Below, piece by piece: positions 30,640 to 46,117 of a DNA stretch of 64,000 nt. The first letter of the stretch is position 1, and every line of letters begins with the position of its first letter. The notes under the pieces are model-generated. The model did no database searches and was not told where the DNA came from. It worked only from the letters and a program-made list of their open reading frames with translations. Source of the DNA: Candidatus Bathyarchaeota archaeon (GTDB lineage: Archaea > Thermoproteota > Bathyarchaeia > TCS64); the NCBI GenBank assembly GCA_043826455.1, contig JBDRQD010000048.1, positions 128,001 to 192,000 on the forward strand. The letters run 5' to 3'. The translations under genes and the position numbers were made by a program.

Positions 30640-31776
30640 CTACTTGCCCTTGGGGAGATTGTAGAGGACCCTGGCCCTGGCCCTATCCAGCTCCCTGATG
30701 GTGGCCCCCAAGTCCATCTTGGCGGGCTCTCCCAGCCTGCTCCTGATGTAGCTGAGGCTCACTATCTGCTGGTTGAAGTTGATGGTCATCTCGGGGCTCA
30801 GGTAAGTGATCTCCGCGCTGCCGAAGCTGTCCGGGAACAGTGTCCTGTAGTTCTCCTCCCACCTGATGTGGTCGTCCAGGCCGCTGTGGTTCCCGAATAT
30901 CAGCATGTTGTACTTCTCGTGGATGGTCTGGATGGCTATGGGTATGCTGGGGTCTATGATGATCTCGTTGAGTATCCTCTCGTCCAGCCTCCTAAACTGG
31001 ACAAGCATGTAGGTGAGCAGGTAGTTGGGGGGTACGAAGAAGTTGGGGAACCTGCACACGGGCATCGCCAGCAGCCTCTCCTGCACCAGGAGGTCGATGC
31101 GCTTCTCCACGGTCTTCCTGTGGAGGCCCGTCCTCTCGCACAGGAGAGTGTGGTTGGTCTTGACGCCCTTGCCGTTCACCAGGCACCTGATGATGTCCAG
31201 GTCCAGCTCGTCAAGGTCGTAGCCCCGCAGCTTCACAGACCCATTCCTGTTGTAGTCCTGCTCTATGAGGTTGATGCCCGTGCTGGGGTTGTACTTGATC
31301 ATGAGCTGGTTGCTGAAGTAGGCCGTGCTGGACTTGAAGTGAGAGTACTCCTCGTCCACCCCGTAGCTGATCTCCAGGATGCTGGGGATGCTGCTCATCC
31401 ACAGCTGGTAGTTGGTGATGTTCTCATGGTAAGTGAAGAGCAGAGTGTCGTACTCCCCCTGCCGGGACCTGAAGGCCGCGAATATCTGGGGGTCCTCGGT
31501 GATCCACTTGATGATGCCCTTGGTGCAGTCCTTGCAGTCAGGGATGTCCACCTTGATGATGGCCAGGACGGGGTAGACCCTGTAGAGGCCGTGGAAGGGG
31601 TAGATGGGGGGGTCCAGGATGTTGTGCCTGAAGATGGTCTCCACCTTGTTCTTGATGGTGTTCCTGTGCTTGCCCAGAATCCTGGAGAGCTCGCTGATGT
31701 TGACACTCACGGCGTTCCCGGACACCAGCTCCTCCAGGAGCTTCAGGTTATCCACGTCGTCTAGCAGCGGTGACAT
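30640..31776 (-). CDS. Internally duplicated Lrp/AsnC-like regulator
   Basis: Two HTH repeats (LD.VD.../GKHRNTI and LDELD.../GLHRKTV), each followed by a beta/alpha RAM-like domain; divergent to the ech operon. Confidence 0.65.
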   Translation of the reverse strand: MSPLLDDVDNLKLLEELVSGNAVSVNISELSRILGKHRNTIKNKVETIFRHNILDPPIYPFHGLYRVYPVLAIIKVDIPDCKDCTKGIIKWITEDPQIFAAFRSRQGEYDTLLFTYHENITNYQLWMSSIPSILEISYGVDEEYSHFKSSTAYFSNQLMIKYNPSTGINLIEQDYNRNGSVKLRGYDLDELDLDIIRCLVNGKGVKTNHTLLCERTGLHRKTVEKRIDLLVQERLLAMPVCRFPNFFVPPNYLLTYMLVQFRRLDERILNEIIIDPSIPIAIQTIHEKYNMLIFGNHSGLDDHIRWEENYRTLFPDSFGSAEITYLSPEMTINFNQQIVSLSYIRSRLGEPAKMDLGATIRELDRARARVLYNLPKGK

Positions 31777-32002
31777 CTTATCCCCTCCCCTGTGGCACTA
31801 ACTTATACTTTCCCGCCTAATAATTACCATAGTTGGATGATTTCCGAGGGGGGAAAGGTTAACATTTACCCCGTGCGAGCATCTAAACATTTACCATCCC
31901 AACACATACGCTATAGCATTTTTTAACATTTTCGATGCCCACCGTGTAAACCCGGTTTATATCAGACACCCATATAGTATCACCCAGGTGAAGGAGGAAG
32001 GC

Positions 32003-32380
32003 ATGAAAATGGTAGTAAAGGAAAAAGAGGAGCTCGTCTTCTTCGGGCCCGGCCTGAGCACACAGGAGATGGACGTGGAGTTCAAGAAACTCTACGACAG
32101 CCTCATCACGTACAAGGTCAACATCTTCCACCTAGTGGACACCGTCTGCAAGGACTGCGAAGCTGGAGATCGCCTAGCCATGAACATCGCCGAGCGGGAC
32201 AGCGCCCTGCTGCAGAGGCTGGTGGCAAAGGAGTGTGAGCAGAGACGGATGCTGAGGAAGGCCCAGAAGGAGAGCGTCCTGGATCAGCTGCGCGGAAAGG
32301 CCCAGGCGGCCGCTTCCGTGGGCCAGGTCCTTGACGCGAGAGACGAGTCTCTTAAGAATCCGAGTGTGTATAGGAAGTAG
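32003..32380 (+). CDS. Hypothetical protein (CxxC), first gene of the hydrogenase operon
   Basis: GGAGG SD; VCKDCE; host-like codon usage. Confidence 0.65.
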   Translation: MKMVVKEKEELVFFGPGLSTQEMDVEFKKLYDSLITYKVNIFHLVDTVCKDCEAGDRLAMNIAERDSALLQRLVAKECEQRRMLRKAQKESVLDQLRGKAQAAASVGQVLDARDESLKNPSVYRK

Positions 32381-32388
32381 ATGAAGGG

Positions 32389-32712
32389 ATGCAGGAAATC
32401 ACCGTTAAACAGGTTCAGGACATAGTCCTTGAGACCCAGGCGGACAAGACCCTCCGGAACATGTTCATCCACAAGAGCCCGTGCGCCGGGAGCAGCGTGG
32501 GTGCGGTGTTCTTCGCCATAAGCGGGACGCCGCCAAGGGGATACGCCATGTTCCTGCCGGAGGGAGGGAAGGACACGGGCACCCTACACGTCTTCGACCA
32601 TCTGGGCCTGAAGAGGAAGATCCTGCACTGCAAGATCACCGACCTGGTGAACTACAGGGACAACGACGTCTGGGACGTACAGGCGGCCCAGGTAGCCGTC
32701 GAGGCAAGGTAA
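32389..32712 (+). CDS. Hypothetical protein
   Basis: 107-aa ORF co-oriented and tightly spaced with the ech genes. Confidence 0.65.
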   Translation: MQEITVKQVQDIVLETQADKTLRNMFIHKSPCAGSSVGAVFFAISGTPPRGYAMFLPEGGKDTGTLHVFDHLGLKRKILHCKITDLVNYRDNDVWDVQAAQVAVEAR

Positions 32713-32758
32713 GACCAGTGGTAGTCGACGCCACTATAAAACCCCCGGGGAATAACGG

Positions 32759-34675
32759 TTGAATCCTCAGACCCTCATCGCGGTGAACGTAGGGCTGCCC
32801 GCTGTGGCGGCCCTAGCGTCGCTGATGCTGAACGATAAACGGATACGTACCGGCATCGTTTCCCTAACCTCAATAGTTTTGATTGTTTCATCCATCCTCC
32901 TCTACATGGGGGGTGGAGTGATGTTCTCGCCGGCCCCCGTCATCGAGACGGCGGTCCTGGCGCTGGACTTCGCCTTGTTAGGCTACTTCCTCTTCGTGGG
33001 TTACAGGTCGCGGAGCCCCCTGGTGCTGGGCTTGGCCCTGCTCCAGCTTGTGCCCGTGGCCTACTTCGAGTTCATCTTGAAGGGCGCCCACGTGGAGCAC
33101 GTAATCGCCGTGGACGGCCTGTCCACGCTGCTTACGCTCATAATCAACATAGTTGGCAGCGTCGTCTGCATATACGCCCTGGGCTACATGGAGGAGCACG
33201 AGCGCCACCTGCACCTGGACCGGAGCAGGCAGGGCAGGTTCTTCTTCTACCTGGTGCTGCTGCTTGGCGCCATGAATGGCCTCGTCTACAGTAACAGCCT
33301 CTACTGGCTCTACTTCTTCTGGGAGGTGACCACCCTGTGCTGCTACGAGCTCATCAGGCACGACGGCACGGAGGAGGCGGAGAGGAACGCCGTCACGGCC
33401 CTATGGATGGGCCTCGTCGGAGGCGTCGGATTCGTGGCAGCCATGTTCGTGGGCTACGGCGCGGTGCACAGCATCTCCCTCACGGAGATGATGGCCGCCC
33501 CGAGCAGCCAGCTCCTGCTCATAGGCTTCGCCTTGATGGCGCTGGCCGCGTTCACAAAGTCGGCCCAGTTCCCGTTCCACGGCTGGCTCCTGGGGGCCAT
33601 GGTGGCCCCGACGCCGGTCTCGGCGCTGCTCCACAGTAGCACCATGGTGAACGCGGGCGTCTACATGCTGCTTCGGATAGCCCCCGCCATAAAGGGGACC
33701 TCGCTGTCCTACGTGATTGCTCTGGGCGGCGCGGTCACCTTCGTGGTGACCAGCTTCCTTGCCATAAGGCAGAGCGTCTCCAAGAGGGTGCTGGCCTACA
33801 GCACCATAGGTAACCTAGGCCTCATCATCTTGTGCATCGGCCTCAACACCGGGCTCAGCTACACCGCCGCGTTGACGCTGCTGTTCTTCCACAGCGTCGC
33901 CAAGGGCCTCCTCTTCATGGGGGCCGGCGTCGTGGAGAACAAGATAGGCAGCAGGAACATCGAGGACTGGGAGGGGCTGCTCGGCAGGATGCCGGTCACA
34001 AGCATGGTGATGATCATTGGCATGGTCAGCATGTTCCTGCCACCCTTCGGCATGCTCATAGGCAAGTGGGTGGCCGTGGACGCGGTGGCCTCGACGCCCC
34101 TCATCGTCGGGCTGCCACTGGTGGTGCTGGTGGTCCTGGGGAGCGCGGCCACCACCTTCTACTACGCCAAGTGGCTGGGCTTCCTAACGGTACTCCCCAA
34201 CAGCCTCGAGAAGAGGAAGGCGGAGAACCTTGAGACACCCTACAAGCTCTCGCTTTACACGCTGCTGGGCCTCAACATACTGGTGAGCATCGGCGCAGCC
34301 TTGGTGGTGGACGACATAGTCAACCCCATACTGGTGGCGGCCTACCCGCAGGCGGTGACCACGCCCGGCTACATGATAGACCTGGGCTTCACAGCCTTCC
34401 CGGTGTGGCCCCTCTGGGCCGCCGTCCTGGCCGTCGTGCTGATAGGCTCAACGGTGGCCAGGAGCAAGGGAGGCGTCCTCTCGCCGCCCTACCTGGGAGG
34501 GGAGAACGTGGCCGGCAAGCCCGTGACCTTCAGGACCACGGCCGACTCGGAGGTTGCCGTCGAGGTCTCGGGGGTCTACCTGGCCTCCCAGATTGACGAG
34601 GGCAGGGTCGACAGGCTGGCGGTGGGGGCGGGTATCCTTATAATGGCCCTTCTGTTTCTGGTGGTGATTGTCTGA
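32759..34675 (+). CDS. echA: Ech hydrogenase antiporter-like subunit (EchA/NuoL family)
   Basis: FFWEVTT, KSAQFPFHGWL..AMVAPTPVSALLHSSTMV, LAYST. Confidence 0.88.
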   Translation: MNPQTLIAVNVGLPAVAALASLMLNDKRIRTGIVSLTSIVLIVSSILLYMGGGVMFSPAPVIETAVLALDFALLGYFLFVGYRSRSPLVLGLALLQLVPVAYFEFILKGAHVEHVIAVDGLSTLLTLIINIVGSVVCIYALGYMEEHERHLHLDRSRQGRFFFYLVLLLGAMNGLVYSNSLYWLYFFWEVTTLCCYELIRHDGTEEAERNAVTALWMGLVGGVGFVAAMFVGYGAVHSISLTEMMAAPSSQLLLIGFALMALAAFTKSAQFPFHGWLLGAMVAPTPVSALLHSSTMVNAGVYMLLRIAPAIKGTSLSYVIALGGAVTFVVTSFLAIRQSVSKRVLAYSTIGNLGLIILCIGLNTGLSYTAALTLLFFHSVAKGLLFMGAGVVENKIGSRNIEDWEGLLGRMPVTSMVMIIGMVSMFLPPFGMLIGKWVAVDAVASTPLIVGLPLVVLVVLGSAATTFYYAKWLGFLTVLPNSLEKRKAENLETPYKLSLYTLLGLNILVSIGAALVVDDIVNPILVAAYPQAVTTPGYMIDLGFTAFPVWPLWAAVLAVVLIGSTVARSKGGVLSPPYLGGENVAGKPVTFRTTADSEVAVEVSGVYLASQIDEGRVDRLAVGAGILIMALLFLVVIV

Positions 34676-35538
34676 TGGATGCAGCCTCAACCCTCATCAG
34701 CCTCGCACTAGCCCTGGCCGCCCCCCTCATGGGGGGAGTCCTCTCAGGGATCGACAGGAAGCTGACGGCCCGCATGCAGGAGCGTGTGGGGCCGCCGCTC
34801 CTCCAGCCCTTCTACGACGTCATCAAGCTGTGGGCCAAGCAGCCCATGATCGCGAGCAGCCTGCAGCCGGTGCTGGCCTTCGGTTACCTGGGCTTCGCCC
34901 TGGTGGCGGCCGGCATGGTGACCTTCAGGCAGGACCTGCTGCTGGTGCTATTCGTCACCGCCCTGGCCGACATCTGCCTCACCGTTGCGGCCCTCAACGC
35001 CAAGAGCCCCTACAGCTACCTGGGCGCCCGCCGCGAGTTCCTCAGCATGCTGAGCTACGAGCCGGTGATGCTCCTGGCATACGTGGCCATATTCCTGGTG
35101 ACGGGCAGCTTCACGGTCCAGGGGGTCCTGGACTACGGCCGGCCCCTGCTGCTGGTACTGCCTGCGGCCCTGGTGGCGCTGCAGCTGGTGCTGGTGGTGG
35201 AGATGAAGAAGAGCCCCTTCGATGTGAGCGGAAGCGGCCACGCCCACCAGGAACTGGTTCGGGGCGTATACACGGAGCTGAGCGGCTACACCATGGCCCT
35301 GGTTGAGGTGGGCCACTGGGCCAAGGTGGCCACAACCCTCATGATCCTCAGCCTCTTCTGGGCACCCAACCCGGTGATAGGAGCGGCCATCAGCCTGGCC
35401 ATGTTCTTCGTAACCCTAGTGGTGGACAACGTCTACCCCCGGCTCACCTGGCAGCGGATGCTCAAGACCACCTGGGCCCTGGGCTTCACGCTGATAGTGC
35501 TCAACATAGCGGCCCTGGCCGCCGGAGGCGTCATCTAG
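34675..35538 (+). CDS. echB: Ech membrane subunit (EchB/NuoH family)
   Basis: GIDRKLTARMQ.RVGPPLLQPFYD..KL, SPFD, HQELV.G..TE.SG. Confidence 0.88.
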   Translation: MDAASTLISLALALAAPLMGGVLSGIDRKLTARMQERVGPPLLQPFYDVIKLWAKQPMIASSLQPVLAFGYLGFALVAAGMVTFRQDLLLVLFVTALADICLTVAALNAKSPYSYLGARREFLSMLSYEPVMLLAYVAIFLVTGSFTVQGVLDYGRPLLLVLPAALVALQLVLVVEMKKSPFDVSGSGHAHQELVRGVYTELSGYTMALVEVGHWAKVATTLMILSLFWAPNPVIGAAISLAMFFVTLVVDNVYPRLTWQRMLKTTWALGFTLIVLNIAALAAGGVI

Positions 35539-35978
35539 TGTCGCTGATACAGAAGGCCCGGCTCAAGAGCCTCTGGCTGCTCCACTACGACTGCGGCAGC
35601 TGCAACGGCTGCGACATAGAGGTCCTGGCCGCACTGACACCCAAGTTCGACGCCGAGCGCTTCGGCATCATCAACATAGGCGACCCCAAGCAGGCCGACG
35701 TCCTCGTCGTCACGGGCCCAGCCAACAGGCGCAACCAGAGGGTCCTCAGAAACCTGTACGAGCAGATGCCTGAGCCCAAGCTGGTGATAGCCGTAGGCAC
35801 CTGCGCAGCCACGGGCGGAGTCTTCCACAACTGCCCCAACGTGCTGGGCGGCGTGGACAAGGTGATCCCGGTGGACGTCTACGTACCCGGGTGCGCCGTG
35901 CGCCCCGAGCAGATAATAGACGCCGTGGTGCTGGCCCTGGACAAGCTGGCCGGCAAGGCGCCCAAGGAGGAAGAGTGA
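35538..35978 (+). CDS. echC: Ech small subunit (EchC/NuoB family)
   Basis: SCNGCDIE, G.CA..GG, VDVYVPGC..RPE. Confidence 0.9.
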   Translation: MSLIQKARLKSLWLLHYDCGSCNGCDIEVLAALTPKFDAERFGIINIGDPKQADVLVVTGPANRRNQRVLRNLYEQMPEPKLVIAVGTCAATGGVFHNCPNVLGGVDKVIPVDVYVPGCAVRPEQIIDAVVLALDKLAGKAPKEEE

Positions 35979-37774
35979 TGCAGACAGTGAAGGGCGCGGC
36001 CCGGGAGCACACGGTGCAGATGGGCGGCCTCCTAGAGAAGGTAGGGGAGCTGAAGCAGAGGAACGCAAGGTTCATCACCACCACCCTCAGGGACCTGGGC
36101 GGCTCCCTGGAGGTCATCCACCACTTCGAGGTGGGCGGCGTCGTGGAGAACATCCACATGACCGTCCCCAAGGGTGAGCCCATCCAGAGCGTAACCCCCG
36201 AGTACCCGGTGGCCTTCATAGCCGAGAACGAGGCCCGGGACCTGTTCAACGTTGAGTTCAAGGACCTGGCCCTGGACCTGGGCGGAAAGATGCTCAAGAT
36301 CGCCACAAGCCCCTCCACGCTGCTGAAGCCGGCGGAGGGCCCCCAGCCCCCCATCATGAGGAAGCTGGGCCCCTGCAGGGAGGAGTGCCCCGCCATGGTG
36401 AACATCCCCCGGTACATACGGGAGGTGGAGGCAGGCGAGTACGAGGCCGCATACGACACCATCATCGACAGGGCCCCCATACCGGCCATCCTGGGCCGCG
36501 TATGCTTCGCCCCCTGCCAGGATGGGTGCAGGCAGGTATTCGAGGCCAAGCCCATCCAGATCAGGCTCCTGAAGAGGGTCGCAGCTGACGGGTTCAAGGA
36601 GCAGAACGGTGGCCTGGTACGCAACGTCCAGCGGAAGACCGCGACGGGCAAACGTGTGGCCGTCATCGGCGGAGGCCCCGCCGGCGTCTCGGCCGCCTAC
36701 TACCTGGGCATGCTGGGCCACAGCGTCATCCTATACGAGAAGAGCGGCATCCTGGGCGGAGCCATGGCGTGGGGCATACCCAAGTACAGGCTCCCCAAGG
36801 ACATCATGGTGGAGGAGCTGGAAGCAAGGCTGGAGGAGGCCGGCGCAGAGGTCAGGCTCAACGCCGAGGTCACGGACCTGGACCGGCTCATGGAGGAGGG
36901 CTACGACGCCGCCTTCATAGGCATAGGCGCCGAGAAGTGCAATGACCTCAGGTGCAAGGGCGAGGACAGTGAGGGCGTCATAACCTTCACCGATCTTCTC
37001 ACAGCCGTCAACATCAGGAACGAGACCCCGGACCTGGGCAGACGCGTCGCCATCATAGGCGGCGGCAACAGCGCCATGGACTCAGCCAGGACCGCCAGGC
37101 GGCTGGGGGCCGAGGAGGTGACCGTCTACTACAGGCGCATGGAGGAGGAGATGCCCGCCAGCCTCCACGAGCTGAGCGGAGCCATAGAGGAGGACATCAA
37201 CTTTGACTTCCTCAGCAGCCAGATCATCATCCACCCAGGAAAGCCTCTCATCATCGAGTTCCAGCCCATGGTTCCCGGTGAGCCCGACGAGTCAGGCAGA
37301 CGCCGGCCGGTGCCCATGGAGGGCCTAAGCCACAAGGTGGAGGTGGACACAATAGTCTCGGCCATCGGCTCCTACTGCGTGGTGCCCCCCGGATTCAAGG
37401 TGGAGGTGAGCCGCCACGGCAACATCGTCATCGACGAGAACATGAAGACCAGCAGGGACGGCGTCTACGCCGGAGGCGACATCGCCTACGGCACAAGCAA
37501 CGTCATATCCTCCCTCAGGGACGGCAGGCGCGCCGCCTCATCCATCGACAAGTACCTAGGAGGCGAAGGCCTCGACGAGCCGGTCCCCGACATGAGCGAG
37601 TTCGTCTCCAGGCAGGCCGACCTGGACGAGATCAGGGCCCGCGACCAGGCCCCCATCCCCGAACTGGAGGCCGAGGAGCGCATCAAGAGCTTCGCGGAGA
37701 TAGAGCTACTCCTGGAGAAGTGCACAGCGAATTGCGAGGCGGGGAGATGCTGGAGGTGCGACTGGAATGAGTGA
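35978..37774 (+). CDS. Fusion of EchD/NuoC-like domain with GltD-family Fe-S flavoprotein
   Basis: First ~120 aa SVTPEYPVAFIAENEARDLFNVEF (NuoC/EchD); then CREECP, LGRVC..PC...C, GGGPAG, GIP.YRLP, GGGNSAMD, YRR, YAGGD, EAGRCWRC. Confidence 0.88.
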   Translation: MQTVKGAAREHTVQMGGLLEKVGELKQRNARFITTTLRDLGGSLEVIHHFEVGGVVENIHMTVPKGEPIQSVTPEYPVAFIAENEARDLFNVEFKDLALDLGGKMLKIATSPSTLLKPAEGPQPPIMRKLGPCREECPAMVNIPRYIREVEAGEYEAAYDTIIDRAPIPAILGRVCFAPCQDGCRQVFEAKPIQIRLLKRVAADGFKEQNGGLVRNVQRKTATGKRVAVIGGGPAGVSAAYYLGMLGHSVILYEKSGILGGAMAWGIPKYRLPKDIMVEELEARLEEAGAEVRLNAEVTDLDRLMEEGYDAAFIGIGAEKCNDLRCKGEDSEGVITFTDLLTAVNIRNETPDLGRRVAIIGGGNSAMDSARTARRLGAEEVTVYYRRMEEEMPASLHELSGAIEEDINFDFLSSQIIIHPGKPLIIEFQPMVPGEPDESGRRRPVPMEGLSHKVEVDTIVSAIGSYCVVPPGFKVEVSRHGNIVIDENMKTSRDGVYAGGDIAYGTSNVISSLRDGRRAASSIDKYLGGEGLDEPVPDMSEFVSRQADLDEIRARDQAPIPELEAEERIKSFAEIELLLEKCTANCEAGRCWRCDWNE

Positions 37775-38879
37775 CAAACAGAACCTGACCATCATACCCT
37801 TCGGGCCGCAGCACCCGGTGCTCCCCGAGCCCATACAGCTGCAGTTCTACGTGGACGAGGAGAGGATCGTGGACGTCATACCCAACATAGGGTACGTCCA
37901 CAGGGGCATAGAGCGCGCCATAGAGCTCAACGACTACAGGCGCAACCTGTACCTCTGCGAGCGCATCTGCGGCATCTGCAACATAATCCACGGCCAGACC
38001 TACGCGGGCCTCATAGAGAAGATGACCGACACACAGGTCCCCCTCAGGGCCAAGTACCTGCGCACCATATGGTCCGAGGTGGCCAGGCTCCAGAGCCACC
38101 TACTCTGGCTGGGCCTATTCGCCGAGGCCATAGGCTTCGAGAGCCTATTCATGAAGACGTGGCGCGACAGGGAGATCGTGCTGGAGCTGACGGAGGCAAC
38201 CAACGGCCACAGGATACACATGGGCACCACGGCCATCGGCGGCGTCATCAAGGACATGGACGAGAGGCTCAGGGACAGGTACCTCACGGACATGGGCCGT
38301 CTGGAGAAGGAGGTGAACGACTGGAGCCACGTCTTCTATAAGGACGCGGCCTTCAAGGAGAAGACCATGGGCAAGGGCATCCTGCCCAAGGCGGACGCCG
38401 TCCACCTAGGGGCAGTAGGCCCGGTGATACGCGGCAGCGGCATCCCCAACGACATCAGGACCACGGGATACGAGGCCTACGGCGAGCTAGAATTCAAGCC
38501 CATCACGCATGAAGGCTGCGACAGCTACGCCAGGACCCTGGTGCGGATGGACGAGGTCTACCAGAGCATCGGCCTCATCAGGCAGGCCATCAAGCAGCTC
38601 CCCGAGGGACCCATAATCGAGAAGAACGACAGGTTCCCCGACGGCGAAGCCATGATCCGCACCGAGCAGCCCAGGGGAGAGGTCTTCTACTACGGCAAAG
38701 GGAACGGCACCATCTATCTGGAGCGGTGCAGGATCAGGACCCCAACGATACCCAACATACCTCCGCTGCTGAGGATGCTGGTGGGCTATGAGGTGGCTGA
38801 CATACCGACGATAGTCCACAGCATCGACCCGTGCATGAGCTGCACCGAGCGCATCACCCAGGTGAAGGAGGCCTCCTAG
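37767..38879 (+). CDS. echE: Group 4 [NiFe]-hydrogenase large subunit (EchE)
   Basis: GPQHP, GYVHRGIE, L1 ERICGIC, EQPRGE, L2 DPCMSCTER. Confidence 0.92.
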   Translation: MSDKQNLTIIPFGPQHPVLPEPIQLQFYVDEERIVDVIPNIGYVHRGIERAIELNDYRRNLYLCERICGICNIIHGQTYAGLIEKMTDTQVPLRAKYLRTIWSEVARLQSHLLWLGLFAEAIGFESLFMKTWRDREIVLELTEATNGHRIHMGTTAIGGVIKDMDERLRDRYLTDMGRLEKEVNDWSHVFYKDAAFKEKTMGKGILPKADAVHLGAVGPVIRGSGIPNDIRTTGYEAYGELEFKPITHEGCDSYARTLVRMDEVYQSIGLIRQAIKQLPEGPIIEKNDRFPDGEAMIRTEQPRGEVFYYGKGNGTIYLERCRIRTPTIPNIPPLLRMLVGYEVADIPTIVHSIDPCMSCTERITQVKEAS

Positions 38880-39209
38880 ATGCCCAGGTTCCTACGAAAC
38901 GTACTCGAGAACCTCTTCGGTAAGCCGGCGACGGTCAGGTACCCCTTCGAGAAGCCGCCGCTGCCCGAGGGCACAAGGGGCGAGCTCAACTTCAACATGG
39001 TGCGGTGCGACCAGTGCCAGGACTGCGAGAGGATATGCCCCTCGGCCGCCATCACGGTGCACGTGGAGGAGAAGACCATCGACTGGGAGCCCTTCAAGTG
39101 CATCTACTGCCACGCCTGCGTCAGGGCCTGCATGCACAAGGCCATAGAGGCCAAGGACAACGTCTCCAGCCCCGGCTACAAGGTAGCCAAGAAGACGTTC
39201 AAGGCCTAG
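38880..39209 (+). CDS. echF: 2[4Fe-4S] subunit (EchF/NuoI family)
   Basis: KPAT..YP, CDQCQDCERICP, CIYCHACVRAC. Confidence 0.88.
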   Translation: MPRFLRNVLENLFGKPATVRYPFEKPPLPEGTRGELNFNMVRCDQCQDCERICPSAAITVHVEEKTIDWEPFKCIYCHACVRACMHKAIEAKDNVSSPGYKVAKKTFKA

Positions 39210-40210
39210 CCCCCGTCTTCACCCAACCTTTTCAGTACCCTGCAGATGTCTAGGCCCAGCCAAAGCTCCCTCTCACGGGTCACAGGCGTGTCCTTCTCCA
39301 CGTCACCAGCCTTGTAGCTTGTGCTCCACAGTCCGTCGGGCCTCTGATGCTCCACTAGCCAGTCCACGGCCCTCCTGATATCCGGGTCGTCCCGGCTGAA
39401 CCCCATCCGTGAGAGACTGTCCAGGCTGGTCACCAGGTTGGGCCACCAGAAAAGGAACCTGACCCAGTAGCCAGGGTCCCTGTACGATGTGTACGCGTCG
39501 GGCTTGAAAAAACGGCTCTTGAGAAGCCTAGCGGCTTGGAGCGCCTCCTCCCTGCGCCGGTACTCGGGGTGGACAGCGAAGGCACGAAGTACCATATCTG
39601 TCCAGTTGTGGCTGAAGGGCTTGGAGCGGTCCGGCTCAAGGGTCTCCCAAGGCCCCGCGGTGGCCCTGAGCCCCGTCGTGCGATCCAGCCTGCGGGTGAT
39701 GAGGGGCACCGTCCAGCCGCCGTCTCCCTGCCTCATGGAGAGAAGCCACTGGAAGCCCCTGCGGATGCGGTGGTCGTCGCCGTAGCCGCAGAGTATTAGC
39801 ACCGCCATGGTCTCACCTGTGTAGTAGGTGGCGTACTGGTCTCCGATGAAACCCCGGAAATCGCCTTCTAGGGTCTGCCAACCGAACATGTACTCGGAGG
39901 CCCTGGCGACGGCCTCGTGGTCCCGGGTGAGCTGGTGCCTCCTGACCAATACCCTGAGAGCCTTGAACGTCTCCACCAGCGCTCTACGCCCCGGCGGGTA
40001 CCCCTCCTCCTTGCCCGAGGGCCTCCAAGAACCGTCGTCCCTCTGCTTCATGAGAATCTTCCTAACCTCCGGTAGACCCCATACCGCCTCTACGGGGCCC
40101 GGATTTTCGCCTAGGATGTCACGCCTAGCGAAGTACGTCACCGCAGCACTCCCTGACGTAGTTAAAGCCTTTAATGGGTCATGTCTCAGCTCATCAAACA
40201 AATCAGTCAA
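39206..40210 (-). CDS. Prenyltransferase/squalene-cyclase (QW) repeat protein
   Basis: QRDDGSW, QTLEGDF, RQGDGGW, HQRPDGLW. Confidence 0.7.
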   Translation of the reverse strand: MTDLFDELRHDPLKALTTSGSAAVTYFARRDILGENPGPVEAVWGLPEVRKILMKQRDDGSWRPSGKEEGYPPGRRALVETFKALRVLVRRHQLTRDHEAVARASEYMFGWQTLEGDFRGFIGDQYATYYTGETMAVLILCGYGDDHRIRRGFQWLLSMRQGDGGWTVPLITRRLDRTTGLRATAGPWETLEPDRSKPFSHNWTDMVLRAFAVHPEYRRREEALQAARLLKSRFFKPDAYTSYRDPGYWVRFLFWWPNLVTSLDSLSRMGFSRDDPDIRRAVDWLVEHQRPDGLWSTSYKAGDVEKDTPVTRERELWLGLDICRVLKRLGEDGG

Positions 40211-40888: not shown

Positions 40889-41149
40889 AAACATTATTGT
40901 CCACTTGTCTGTTATAGGCTTGGTGTTGAGTGCCAGCCACAAGCCGGGGCCCGCTGGACACCTAAAACACACAGGTTTTGCGTCAAACATGTTAATAATA
41001 TCCCATCCATCTAGGACAACCAATTTTATAGCTGCCCCCGATCAAGTGCAGCACTCCCACCCCCTAGAATTGTATCGCTCATACATTATTCCCCGGTGAC
41101 TACCCGACACGGGCTAATCTTTTCAACCTGGGGGGAGACACTTAAACTG

Positions 41150-42007
41150 ATGGAGCGCCTCACCAAGGCCCGGCTCAGCAACCTGGACAAGGTCCTGTAC
41201 CCGGAGCTGGGCCTCACCAAGGCCCAGGTCATCGAGTACTACGTCAGGGTCGCGCCCAGGATGCTCCCCTTCCTCAGGGACCGGGCCCTGGTCAGGGCCA
41301 GGTACCCCGACGGGGTAGACGCCGAGGGCTTCTACGAGAAGGACGCCTCCTCCGGAACCCCTGAGTGGGTGAAGACTTATACCAAGTTCAGTGAGAGCTC
41401 GGCCAAGGACACGGAGTACGTGGTCTGCGGCGACCTGGACACCCTCATCTGGCTTGCCAACCTGGCAGCCCTGGAGCTCCACGTCCCCCTGTCAAGGGTG
41501 CCCCTCACGGACATCCCCGACCTGTGCCTCTTCGACCTGGACCCAGAGCCCCCTGCTGGGCTGAGGGAGGCCGTCCAGGCAGTGTTCCTCCTTAGGGAGG
41601 CCTTGGAGGACCTGGGCCTCAAGCCCTACGTGAAGACCTCGGGCAGGAAGGGGGTCCACGTCGTCGTGCCCTTGGAGCCCCTGTACACCTTTGAGGAGAC
41701 CCGGAGTTTTGTTCACAGAATCGGTGTGGGGCTGGCTGAGAACCACGAACTCGTAGTGTCGGAGAGGAGCCAGACCGGGGAGCCTGGGACGGTGCTTGTG
41801 GACTACCCCCAGAACAGTGAGCACGCCACCATGGTTGCCCCCTACAGCCTCAGGGCCATCAGGGAGGCCACCGTAAGCACGCCCCTGGAGTGGGGTGAGC
41901 TGGCTACGCTCAGGCCCTTCGACCACAACATCTTCAACGTGCCTGACAGGCGGAAGGACCCTTGGGGCGGGATGCTGGAGGAGCCCCAGCGGCTGCCTAC
42001 ACTATGA
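41150..42007 (+). CDS. LigD-type primase-polymerase (stand-alone Pol domain)
   Basis: LSNLDKVLYP, RYPDG, FYEK, N.AALELH, FDLDP, KTSG.KG.HV, VDY.QN, VAPYSLR, VSTPLEW.E. Confidence 0.92.
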   Translation: MERLTKARLSNLDKVLYPELGLTKAQVIEYYVRVAPRMLPFLRDRALVRARYPDGVDAEGFYEKDASSGTPEWVKTYTKFSESSAKDTEYVVCGDLDTLIWLANLAALELHVPLSRVPLTDIPDLCLFDLDPEPPAGLREAVQAVFLLREALEDLGLKPYVKTSGRKGVHVVVPLEPLYTFEETRSFVHRIGVGLAENHELVVSERSQTGEPGTVLVDYPQNSEHATMVAPYSLRAIREATVSTPLEWGELATLRPFDHNIFNVPDRRKDPWGGMLEEPQRLPTL

Positions 42008-45287: not shown

Positions 45288-45316
45288 GGCGCGGGTTTCC
45301 AAGATGATCCTTGGAG

Positions 45317-46117
45317 ATGGGTTTGAGCGACCTTCAGGCTGAGCCCTCCAGCAGAAGCATCTGGAGCGGCAGGATCAGCATCGGCCTCGTCAACGTCCCC
45401 GTGAAGCTGTACACCATGATCAAGGACCAGAGCTTCAGCTTCAGGTTCGTCCGCAGAGGCGACGCGTGCCCCCTCAAGTACGAGCGGGTCTGCACCCTGG
45501 ACAACGAGGTGGTGCCCTGGGGCGACGTGGGCCGCGCCGTGGAGGTGCGCAAGGGCGAGTACGTTGTCTTCACCGACGAGGAGTTGAAGGCTCTCCGCCC
45601 CGAGTCCAACCGGAAGATAGCCATAGACAGGTTCGTGCCCCTCGGCCAGGTGGACCGCGTCTTCTACGACACCAGCTACATACTGGCCCCCGACAAGGCC
45701 GAGGACAGCTACGGGCTGCTCCTGAAGGCGTTCAAGGAGAGAGGGGCCGCGGGGGTCGGCAGGTTCACCCTCCGCACCAAGGAGTACCCGGTCATCGTCT
45801 ACCCCTACAGGGGCGCCCTGGTCCTCACCACCCTCAGGTATAGCGACGAGGTTGTGGACCCACAGGCCGTGGAGGCGGTCAGGGCAGCCAAGGAGCCTAC
45901 CAAGGAGGAGCTGGCCCTGGCCCTAAGGATCATCGATAACCTGAGCGGAGAGTTCGACATCAAGGAGTACAGGGACACCTTCCGCGAGGAGGTGGAGAAG
46001 CTGGTGGAGAAGAAGATGCGGGGCGAGACCATCACCGTTGAGGAGCCCAAGGCCGAGGAGGTCCGCGGCCTCATGCAGGCCCTCCAGGAGACCCTGGCCC
46101 AGATGCAGCAGAGATGA
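45317..46117 (+). CDS. ku: Ku protein (prokaryotic NHEJ)
   Basis: RSIWSG.IS.GLVNVPVKLY, I.IDRFVP, Y.LAP, L.TLRY.DEV, Y.D.F, LM.AL..TL. Confidence 0.95.
   Translation: MGLSDLQAEPSSRSIWSGRISIGLVNVPVKLYTMIKDQSFSFRFVRRGDACPLKYERVCTLDNEVVPWGDVGRAVEVRKGEYVVFTDEELKALRPESNRKIAIDRFVPLGQVDRVFYDTSYILAPDKAEDSYGLLLKAFKERGAAGVGRFTLRTKEYPVIVYPYRGALVLTTLRYSDEVVDPQAVEAVRAAKEPTKEELALALRIIDNLSGEFDIKEYRDTFREEVEKLVEKKMRGETITVEEPKAEEVRGLMQALQETLAQMQQR

Follow-up and report, generated by a model that had tools for sequence, protein, structure and literature searches.

An EchD subunit fused to a GltD-like flavoprotein in a Bathyarchaeia hydrogenase operon: a predicted NADP(H) port of an energy-converting hydrogenase

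Background

Energy-converting hydrogenases have been modelled as enzymes fed by ferredoxin, CO or formate; the canonical EchD subunit of Ech is small and free of cofactors, and about one ion is translocated per H2. The present analysis concerns an echABCDEF operon in a 64,000-nucleotide stretch of DNA from a Candidatus Bathyarchaeota archaeon (GenBank assembly GCA_043826455.1, contig JBDRQD010000048.1, positions 128,001 to 192,000; the whole stretch is hereafter referred to as the window), the echD gene of which encodes a protein of 598 amino acids (aa) in which an EchD domain continues in frame into a GltD-like flavoprotein.

Several described systems are related to this locus. Ech, encoded by echABCDEF, constitutes HydDB group 4e and is ferredoxin-coupled (PMC5037454). 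In Dehalococcoides, DET0866, a 'putative hydrogenase subunit', had its annotation changed to glutamate synthase in a metabolic model (PMC2930330), and Schut et al. designated the cluster Mbh-Bfu, with a subunit, Mbh-BfuG, that carries a flavin site of unknown function (PMC9304861). In the mbx-like operons of Thermotoga and proteobacteria, a GltD-related flavoprotein has been proposed to provide the NAD(P) site in a membrane enzyme resembling complex I (PMC4758237). The flavin adenine dinucleotide (FAD) of StnC and NfnA is described as a non-bifurcating point of entry for NADPH, and the bifurcating NfnL is stated to have a Glu at the position of their Lys ligand (PMC10482914, PMC12018979).

From the sequence comparisons described below, it is considered reasonably probable that the complex encoded in the window is an ion-translocating, non-bifurcating NADPH:H+ oxidoreductase, in other words an Ech with a built-in NADP(H) port.

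The ech operon and the architecture of the EchD fusion

The operon consists of the following genes.

32759..34675, + strand: echA, antiporter-like membrane subunit, 638 aa (Pfam Proton_antipo_M/N)
34675..35538, + strand: echB, NuoH-like membrane subunit, 287 aa (Pfam NADHdh)
35538..35978, + strand: echC, small subunit of 146 aa that carries a single [4Fe-4S] motif set (Pfam Oxidored_q6; cysteines in the alignment)
35978..37774, + strand: echD fused to a StnC/NfnA-type GltD-like domain with FAD and two [4Fe-4S] clusters, 598 aa (Pfam, alignments and fold match)
37767..38879, + strand: echE, [NiFe] large subunit, 370 aa (both CxxC motifs present, the second followed by an 8-aa tail)
38880..39209, + strand: echF, subunit with two [4Fe-4S] clusters, 109 aa

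The gene order is canonical, the stop and start codons of adjoining genes overlap or abut, and the gene content is that of Ech, with a single antiporter-like and a single NuoH-like subunit. EchE carries the Ni-binding motifs ERICGIC and DPCMSCTER in the alignment, and both Ni CxxC motifs are present in all EchE rows with a printed motif, three rows ending before the second motif and two not being matched by the first pattern. The nearest large subunits outside the archaeal clade, several of them named 'ech hydrogenase subunit E', are 358-363 aa long and 53-56% identical to that of the window, and are separated from other group 4 subunits in a quick tree that included no characterised EchE. The open reading frames, the Pfam matches and the EchE motifs thus agree with the original prediction, made from the letters of this DNA, of a 598-codon D gene in a canonical echABCDEF with intact Ni-binding CxxC motifs. 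The D subunit itself departs from the small EchD of Ech, having 598 aa with FAD and Fe-S motifs, and its unfused relatives mostly have 100-180 aa.

Pfam models match this protein at residues 32-96 (Complex1_30kDa, 24.5 bits, cut-off 22.5), 132-209 (Fer4_20) and 226-507 (Pyr_redox_2). The cluster, FAD, Rossmann, YRR and RCWRC motifs listed earlier could all be located, namely C133xxxC137P, GRVC176xxPC180xxxC184, GGGPAG (231-236), GGGNSAMD (361-368), YRR (385-387) and RC591WRC594. For assessment of conservation, 46 full-length fusions were aligned, comprising that of the window, those of 44 of the 54 loci found in GTDB genomes and that of locus L077; eight contig-cut loci and two unrelated genes were excluded. 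The parts of the fusion are given below, with predicted local distance difference test (pLDDT) values where a structure model was informative.

35978..36292, + strand: EchD/NuoC-like domain, aa 1-105 (Complex1_30kDa at 32-96; alpha/beta fold, pLDDT about 80-90 over aa 11-100)
36293..36370, + strand: linker of near-fixed length, aa 106-131, 26 aa (conservation 63%; low pLDDT in the lone-chain model)
36371..36607, + strand: Fe-S domain with C133, C137, C176, C180, C184 and Lys199
36953..37348, + strand: predicted NADP(H)-binding Rossmann domain, aa 326-457, with GGGNSA and YRR (132 aa, absent from Dehalococcoides-type homologues)
37748..37759, + strand: C-terminal C591xxC594 pair (9bov and 8oh5 alignments; kept in 46 of 46 fusions)

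The run of about 120 residues formerly assigned to EchD is EchD in nature but shorter, with about 105 residues followed by the conserved 26-aa linker. The model of the lone chain as a whole (pLDDT 80, predicted template modelling score 0.71) has a low-confidence linker and is uninformative on the placement of the domains.

The flavin domain as a port for NADPH

The best matches of the flavin domain among solved structures, in sequence as well as in fold, are NfnA (9n5u, 9bov) and StnC (8oh5), which come ahead of NfnL and GltD; the sequence matches to NfnA and StnC have E-values of 1e-88 to 1e-96 at 35-38% identity. Because the alignments with 9bov and 8oh5 extend through the C-terminal CxxC, the permuted cluster layout recognised in the original prediction is present but is the standard layout of the StnC/NfnA class rather than a novel one. 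By analogy with these proteins, we infer that the C591xxC594 pair completes the distal cluster. Position counts on the printed alignments equate K199 with StnC K170 and R271 with StnC R239, and in 9n5u (Tsi NfnA), with an offset of 8, with K165 and R234. All 46 fusions retain the seven cluster cysteines, K199 and R387, and 45 of them retain R271, as is also the case for R386; two true NfnL controls have Glu at the K199 position. The GGGN..YRR motif of the fusion aligns with the NADPH enzymes StnC, NfnA and NfnL. The domain therefore combines the features of the StnC/NfnA type (the Lys ligand at the FAD-proximal cluster, the C-terminal CxxC, the flavin Arg and the GGGN..RR motif) and has neither the Glu ligand nor the N-terminal CxxC motif of NfnL, nor an nfnS gene in its operon.

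Two alternatives for the chemistry of this domain need to be weighed here. The first is that NADH or another two-electron partner is used in place of NADPH, specificity having been read from motifs and GltD-like domains being found in many contexts. It is improbable, as GGGN..YRR is the same as in the NADPH enzymes StnC, NfnA and NfnL, with R387 invariant and R386 replaced once, and as NADH, at about -280 mV in vivo compared with -380 mV for NADPH (table in PMC9304861), gives no energy for pumping.

The second alternative, bifurcation, had also been raised in the original prediction: the fused FAD might bifurcate or confurcate as in NfnSL, with NfnS acting in trans, and link H2, NADP(H) and NAD(H) at the membrane. 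The domain is indeed NfnL-like, and nfnS lies 2-3 kb or less from echA in 11 of the 54 GTDB loci. Bifurcation by the fused FAD is nevertheless unlikely because Lys199, and not the Glu of NfnL, is found at the FAD-proximal cluster in all 46 fusions. Furthermore, neither nfnS nor BfuABC genes occur in the ech operon of the window, the linked nfnS genes have their own nfnL next to them in 10 of the 11 loci, that is, wherever the locus reaches far enough, and the nfnSL of the host genome resides on a different contig (C66), near a gene for NADP-specific glutamate dehydrogenase and with Glu at the cluster-ligand site of its NfnL. StnC-type domains are moreover reported to have lost bifurcation (PMC10482914, PMC12018979). 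The scheme with NfnS in trans is thus given quite a low probability, and the idea was not upheld.

Assignment of the flavoprotein as a glutamate synthase subunit was rejected, the host genome being without the large subunit GltB, for which PF01645 gave no more than two partial matches, both weak (about 29 bits, positions 205-306 of 369). The suggestion of a built-in NADP(H) diaphorase on Ech, on the other hand, gains support from the NADP-site motifs, from the absence of GltB and from the two natural variants described below.

Authenticity and distribution of the fusion

The EchD fusion is not a frameshift or an assembly artefact. A chimera was ruled out by full-length homologues, by a matching contig and by even GC content at third codon positions, which is 0.87-0.96 in every part of the gene. 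The contig, of 43 kb, covers positions 31900-39300 with 0 differences, its run being possibly the source of this DNA and so not independent. The junction, which had been marked for checking, shows no sign of artefact, and the combination of Complex1_30kDa, Fer4_20 and Pyr_redox_2 proposed for a domain-architecture search recurs in the homologues. With residues 1-135 alone as the query, 70 proteins (query included) were found among proteins of 328-1047 aa, all of them 586-607 aa long and carrying Fer4_20 and Pyr_redox_2; shorter proteins gave four matches, three of which came from contigs of less than 800 bases.

Of the 54 loci in GTDB genomes, 52 are in an ech context, L068 and L069 being unrelated GltD-like genes. 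When a profile built from EchD and the linker was run against 301 genomes of the class, 62 matched at E<=1e-15; 47 of these had strong matches (E<1e-30) that belong to two families and are nearly all open frames of about 600 aa. In a phylum-level draw of 401 genomes, six matched at E<=1e-20, three of them outside the class. Against 50%-identity representatives, the profile matched mostly unfused EchD of 100-180 aa and a few long fused proteins, whose clusters include a Planctomycetota metagenome-assembled genome and partial Dehalococcoides mccartyi proteins. The closest named relatives of the window's fusion are Bathyarchaeia, and the fusion as such was found in Bathyarchaeia, Methanomethylicia and bacteria.

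Three records with Bathyarchaeia-type operons (L023, L024 and L044) are titled Desulfaltia, Krumholzibacteriaceae and Patescibacteria and are probably mis-titled or misbinned. Their titles were rejected as a sign of transfer, the proteins being 54-92% identical and nested among Bathyarchaeia; for the genome of L044, contig and position are identical to those of a same-family genome.

It has also to be considered that the flavin domain could be a structural or relay remnant without nucleotide chemistry, or a fusion artefact. The NADP domain is gone in the Dehalococcoides-type homologue, and a 141-aa homologue (P0072) ends just past the linker. These facts are outweighed by conservation across the 46 fusions, which is 62% for the FAD/NADP part and 63% for the linker as against 48% for EchD, by the presence of the fusion in archaeal and bacterial lineages and by the contig that covers the region without differences, so that a remnant or artefact is very improbable.

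In three RNA-library runs, which belong to three studies, contigs that derive from relatives cover 27, 29 and 29 of 30 operon bins at a likeness of at least 82%. No listed piece bridges the interval between the EchD domain and the first cluster cysteine, and DNA carry-over is uncontrolled; such coverage is weak and no proof of expression of the operon.

Natural variants of the operon

Five paralogue loci form one clade nested among the relatives of the window in a quick EchE tree. In all four of them with upstream DNA, neither echA nor echB precedes the operon. In all five, EchF is about 20 residues shorter at its N-terminus and EchE has GPQDV in place of GPQHP, and the four with echC have an altered N-terminus and DxERFG motif; the changed segments of EchF, EchE and EchC are presumably membrane-facing elements, judging from complex I and MBH structures. 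The Ni cysteines and all the flavoprotein ligands are retained in five of five. As the NiFe and flavin ligands are kept without echAB, the flavin domain and the NiFe site would therefore stay together as a soluble unit, and the sequence of this unit fits a soluble H2:NADP+ oxidoreductase.

The echAB-less copy, which may be a soluble group 4 hydrogenase bearing a flavin domain, occurs as a second copy at L034:5777-10166 and in L036, L037, L039 and L035. The Bathyarchaeia genomes concerned also hold another copy, which is complete in L047, L029 and L028 and cut in L064 and L065.

The second variant is found in loci that are 95-100% like the D. mccartyi protein (L105:732-9820, L106 and L120-L123), in which the order is echA-echB-echC-hymA-hymB-hymC, a 461-aa EchD fusion, echE and echF. 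This order matches DET0860-0868, from which Mbh-BfuG is inferred to be DET0866. In seven of 18 bacterial-type fusions, residues 326-457, that is, the NADP domain, are missing exactly and R271 is replaced, with the cluster ligands kept, and hymABC/BfuABC stand between echC and echD in all six truncated forms with a locus. The remaining 11 bacterial-type fusions are full-length and keep both the NADP domain and R271, and in the eight for which there is a locus, echC and echD are never separated by hym genes. The truncated forms constitute one clade nested inside the full-length ones (SH-aLRT 99/100) in a flavin-domain tree with six outgroups only, StnC and NfnA not among them. Loss of the NADP site where another nucleotide/ferredoxin module has arrived is as expected if that site serves the full-length enzyme as its electron port, and the full-length, Bfu-less form of the window is likely, from these sequence relationships, to represent the ancestral state. 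In L123, EchE groups with full-length-fusion operons and the EchD fusion with truncated ones, a possible cassette swap.

Proposed function and energetics

In the proposed NADPH:H+ oxidoreductase, the reaction NADPH + H+ <-> NADP+ + H2 would be coupled to the translocation of about one ion. Electrons would pass from NADPH to FAD, to the proximal cluster, to the distal cluster, to EchF, to EchC and to the NiFe site, and EchA/EchB would move about one ion for each H2. Sediment H2 is low, about 0.1-1 Pa, and at such levels the reaction would proceed toward H2 and energy would be conserved from NADPH, for which NADP-glutamate dehydrogenase in peptide fermentation is a possible source; above about 3-20 Pa H2 it would reverse. 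For NADPH at -370 to -380 mV, H2 formation was computed to yield -14 to -16 kJ/mol at 10 Pa and -25 to -27 kJ/mol at 0.15 Pa, with a break-even for one ion at 150-180 mV of 3-21 Pa H2. In 13 of the 54 GTDB loci, divergent nfnSL and/or the NADP-glutamate dehydrogenase gene gdhA lie directly upstream of echA, a linkage that points to the NADP pool and to no direction.

The strongest competing explanation is that the enzyme has remained an Ech coupled to ferredoxin, the flavin domain being a side outlet which reduces NADP+ for biosynthesis (for example, ammonium assimilation via glutamate dehydrogenase) with electrons from ferredoxin or from gradient-driven H2. It accounts for most of the same facts: both EchF clusters are kept, the linkage to NADP-glutamate dehydrogenase is compatible with either direction, ammonium assimilation in a genome without GltB would need glutamate dehydrogenase and NADPH, and there is no conflict with the soluble 3b-type hydrogenase of the genome. 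It is, however, less well suited to the loss of the NADP domain where the Bfu module (ferredoxin + NADH) was gained, for which replacement of a terminal port is the better fit, and H2-driven NADP+ reduction with one ion would need more than about 3-20 Pa H2 for NADPH at -370 to -380 mV. A side outlet is thus considered unlikely, though by no means negligible.

Several observations weigh against an NADPH-driven pump. The loss of echAB is a single evolutionary event, as is the loss of the NADP domain with the gain of Bfu; the Dehalococcoides form shows a flavin domain persisting without an NADP site; and the linkage to gdh-nfnSL, where placed in the tree, belongs to one clade. The host genome also encodes a soluble hydrogenase of the group 3b type, which would short-circuit the pump unless separately regulated, and the NfnSL of the genome could pass electrons from NADPH to ferredoxin without a new port. 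The energy margin is thin and depends on assumed in vivo NADPH ratios, and the motifs leave some room for use of NADH by the flavin domain.

A wider proposal, held tentatively and at slightly below an even chance, is that the six-subunit ion-pumping NADPH:H+ oxidoreductase would constitute a new respiratory coupling site at low sediment H2 in Bathyarchaeia, Methanomethylicia and several bacterial lineages, and the ancestor of both the Dehalococcoides Mbh-Bfu and a soluble, membrane-arm-less group 4 NADPH hydrogenase.

If the NADPH:H+ oxidoreductase is real, an NADPH-fed Ech would give the abundant uncultured archaea of sediments a further coupling site, close to the minimum energy quantum, and metabolic models that read the gene as glutamate synthase, as for DET0866, would change. 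It would offer a concrete explanation for the Mbh-Bfu flavin site 'of unknown function' in Dehalococcoides, and, with a GltD-like part in place of NuoEFG, would represent a complex I-like module for the input of NAD(P)H. Both the flavin domain and the four-gene soluble paralogue are directly amenable to expression and assay.

Neighbouring genes and genome setting

Three further features lie upstream of echA.

30640..31776, - strand: divergent regulator, AsnC-type helix-turn-helix (below the Pfam cut-off), in the same place in 7 of 54 GTDB loci
31988..32380, + strand: open reading frame of no known family, 130 aa, conserved upstream of the operon and retained in the echAB-less paralogues
32389..32712, + strand: open reading frame of no known family, 107 aa, distributed like the 130-aa frame and joined to its domain in L043

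The pair of small frames (31988-32712, + strand), kept with the echAB-less copy and fused in L043, lies downstream of CMD/AhpD-like genes in L038 and L043. For the two frames, a search of the ESM Atlas turned up nothing informative (best 0.77), and for the fusion a generic family only. Just downstream of the operon, the genes at 41096-42007 and 45311-46117 (+ strand) are, we presume, LigD primase-polymerase-like and Ku-like; similar genes come after the operon in L029 and L061. The operon is followed by a hydrogenase protease and hyp genes in L043 (10212-15748) and by hdrB and hdrA-mvhD in L053 (10727-13922).

The host genome is 97.7% complete and 7.2% contaminated. Its NiFe maturation genes include hypD and two hycI (hydrogenase proteases). 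The alpha subunit of the group 3b-type hydrogenase has its best match to sulfhydrogenase models, below their cut-offs. Besides EchE, five NiFe-type large subunits are encoded (C15:221444-229518, C55:31255-42420, C55:17046-25977, C60:6221-10189 and C66:50133-57043), corresponding to two group 4 enzymes, two Mvh-Hdr-like clusters and a single cluster of the group 3b-like kind. Complex1_51K has its sole match in the genome on contig C56, where NuoE-like and NuoF-like (662 aa) genes stand beside an HdrB-like gene with no hydrogenase (C56:23999-28192, - strand). Two A/V-type ATPase c subunits are present, of which one (C38:7886-8590) has three hairpins with Q..ET motifs, which we take to be of the Na+ type, and the other (C55:78706-79134) has EG at the carboxylate.

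Comparison with known systems

The original prediction had allowed that the architecture might already be described. This holds for the truncated form, which is without the NADP domain and is in print as Mbh-BfuG (PMC9304861); no description of a full-length, Bfu-less fusion was found in the full-text literature searched, subscription journals, figures and most supplements being outside its scope. The excerpts of PMC9982363 and PMC10321748 hold no passage on Ech, and those of PMC6405883, PMC6349859 and PMC6383490 no mention of the fusion.

NfnSL (NfnAB) shares a homologous large-subunit fold with the window's flavin domain; the fusion has neither its Glu ligand nor its N-terminal cluster motif, nor an NfnS partner. 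StnC of Sporomusa ovata (8oh5) and NfnA of Nfn-Bfu (9bov, 9n5u) have the same permuted layout, Lys ligand, flavin Arg and NADP motif; these proteins feed a soluble BfuBC bifurcating core, whereas the domain of the window is fused to a membrane hydrogenase subunit in an operon without BfuBC.

Like the enzyme of the window, Ehd, Ehe, Ehg and Ehi are archaeal group 4 hydrogenases with an extra redox module (PMC9723716, PMC12700198), but their HdrB/FrhB modules are separate genes for disulfides or F420 and not an EchD-fused NADP(H) flavin domain. Clusters of the Ehd/Drh-like kind, with ferredoxin, NuoC, HdrB-like, large and small subunits, are present in other Bathyarchaeia (L075:5444-9631, L076:2859-6950 and L078:4792-8877).

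The Mbh-Bfu of D. mccartyi has the Ech core and a homologous EchD::GltD-like fusion in the same place, with 34-35% identity over aa 13-320, and differs in the insertion of hymABC/BfuABC and in a fusion without the 132-aa NADP domain and the flavin Arg. With Ech (group 4e), the locus shares the six-gene order, one antiporter-like and one NuoH-like subunit and the NiFe ligands; it differs in its 598-aa EchD with FAD and two [4Fe-4S] clusters, in its predicted partner, NADP(H), and in the 8-aa tail of EchE. In the mbx-like operons, finally, the flavoprotein replaces NuoI, the Ni ligands are vestigial and an Mrp antiporter is present, whereas the operon of the window keeps a NuoI-like EchF and intact NiFe ligands.

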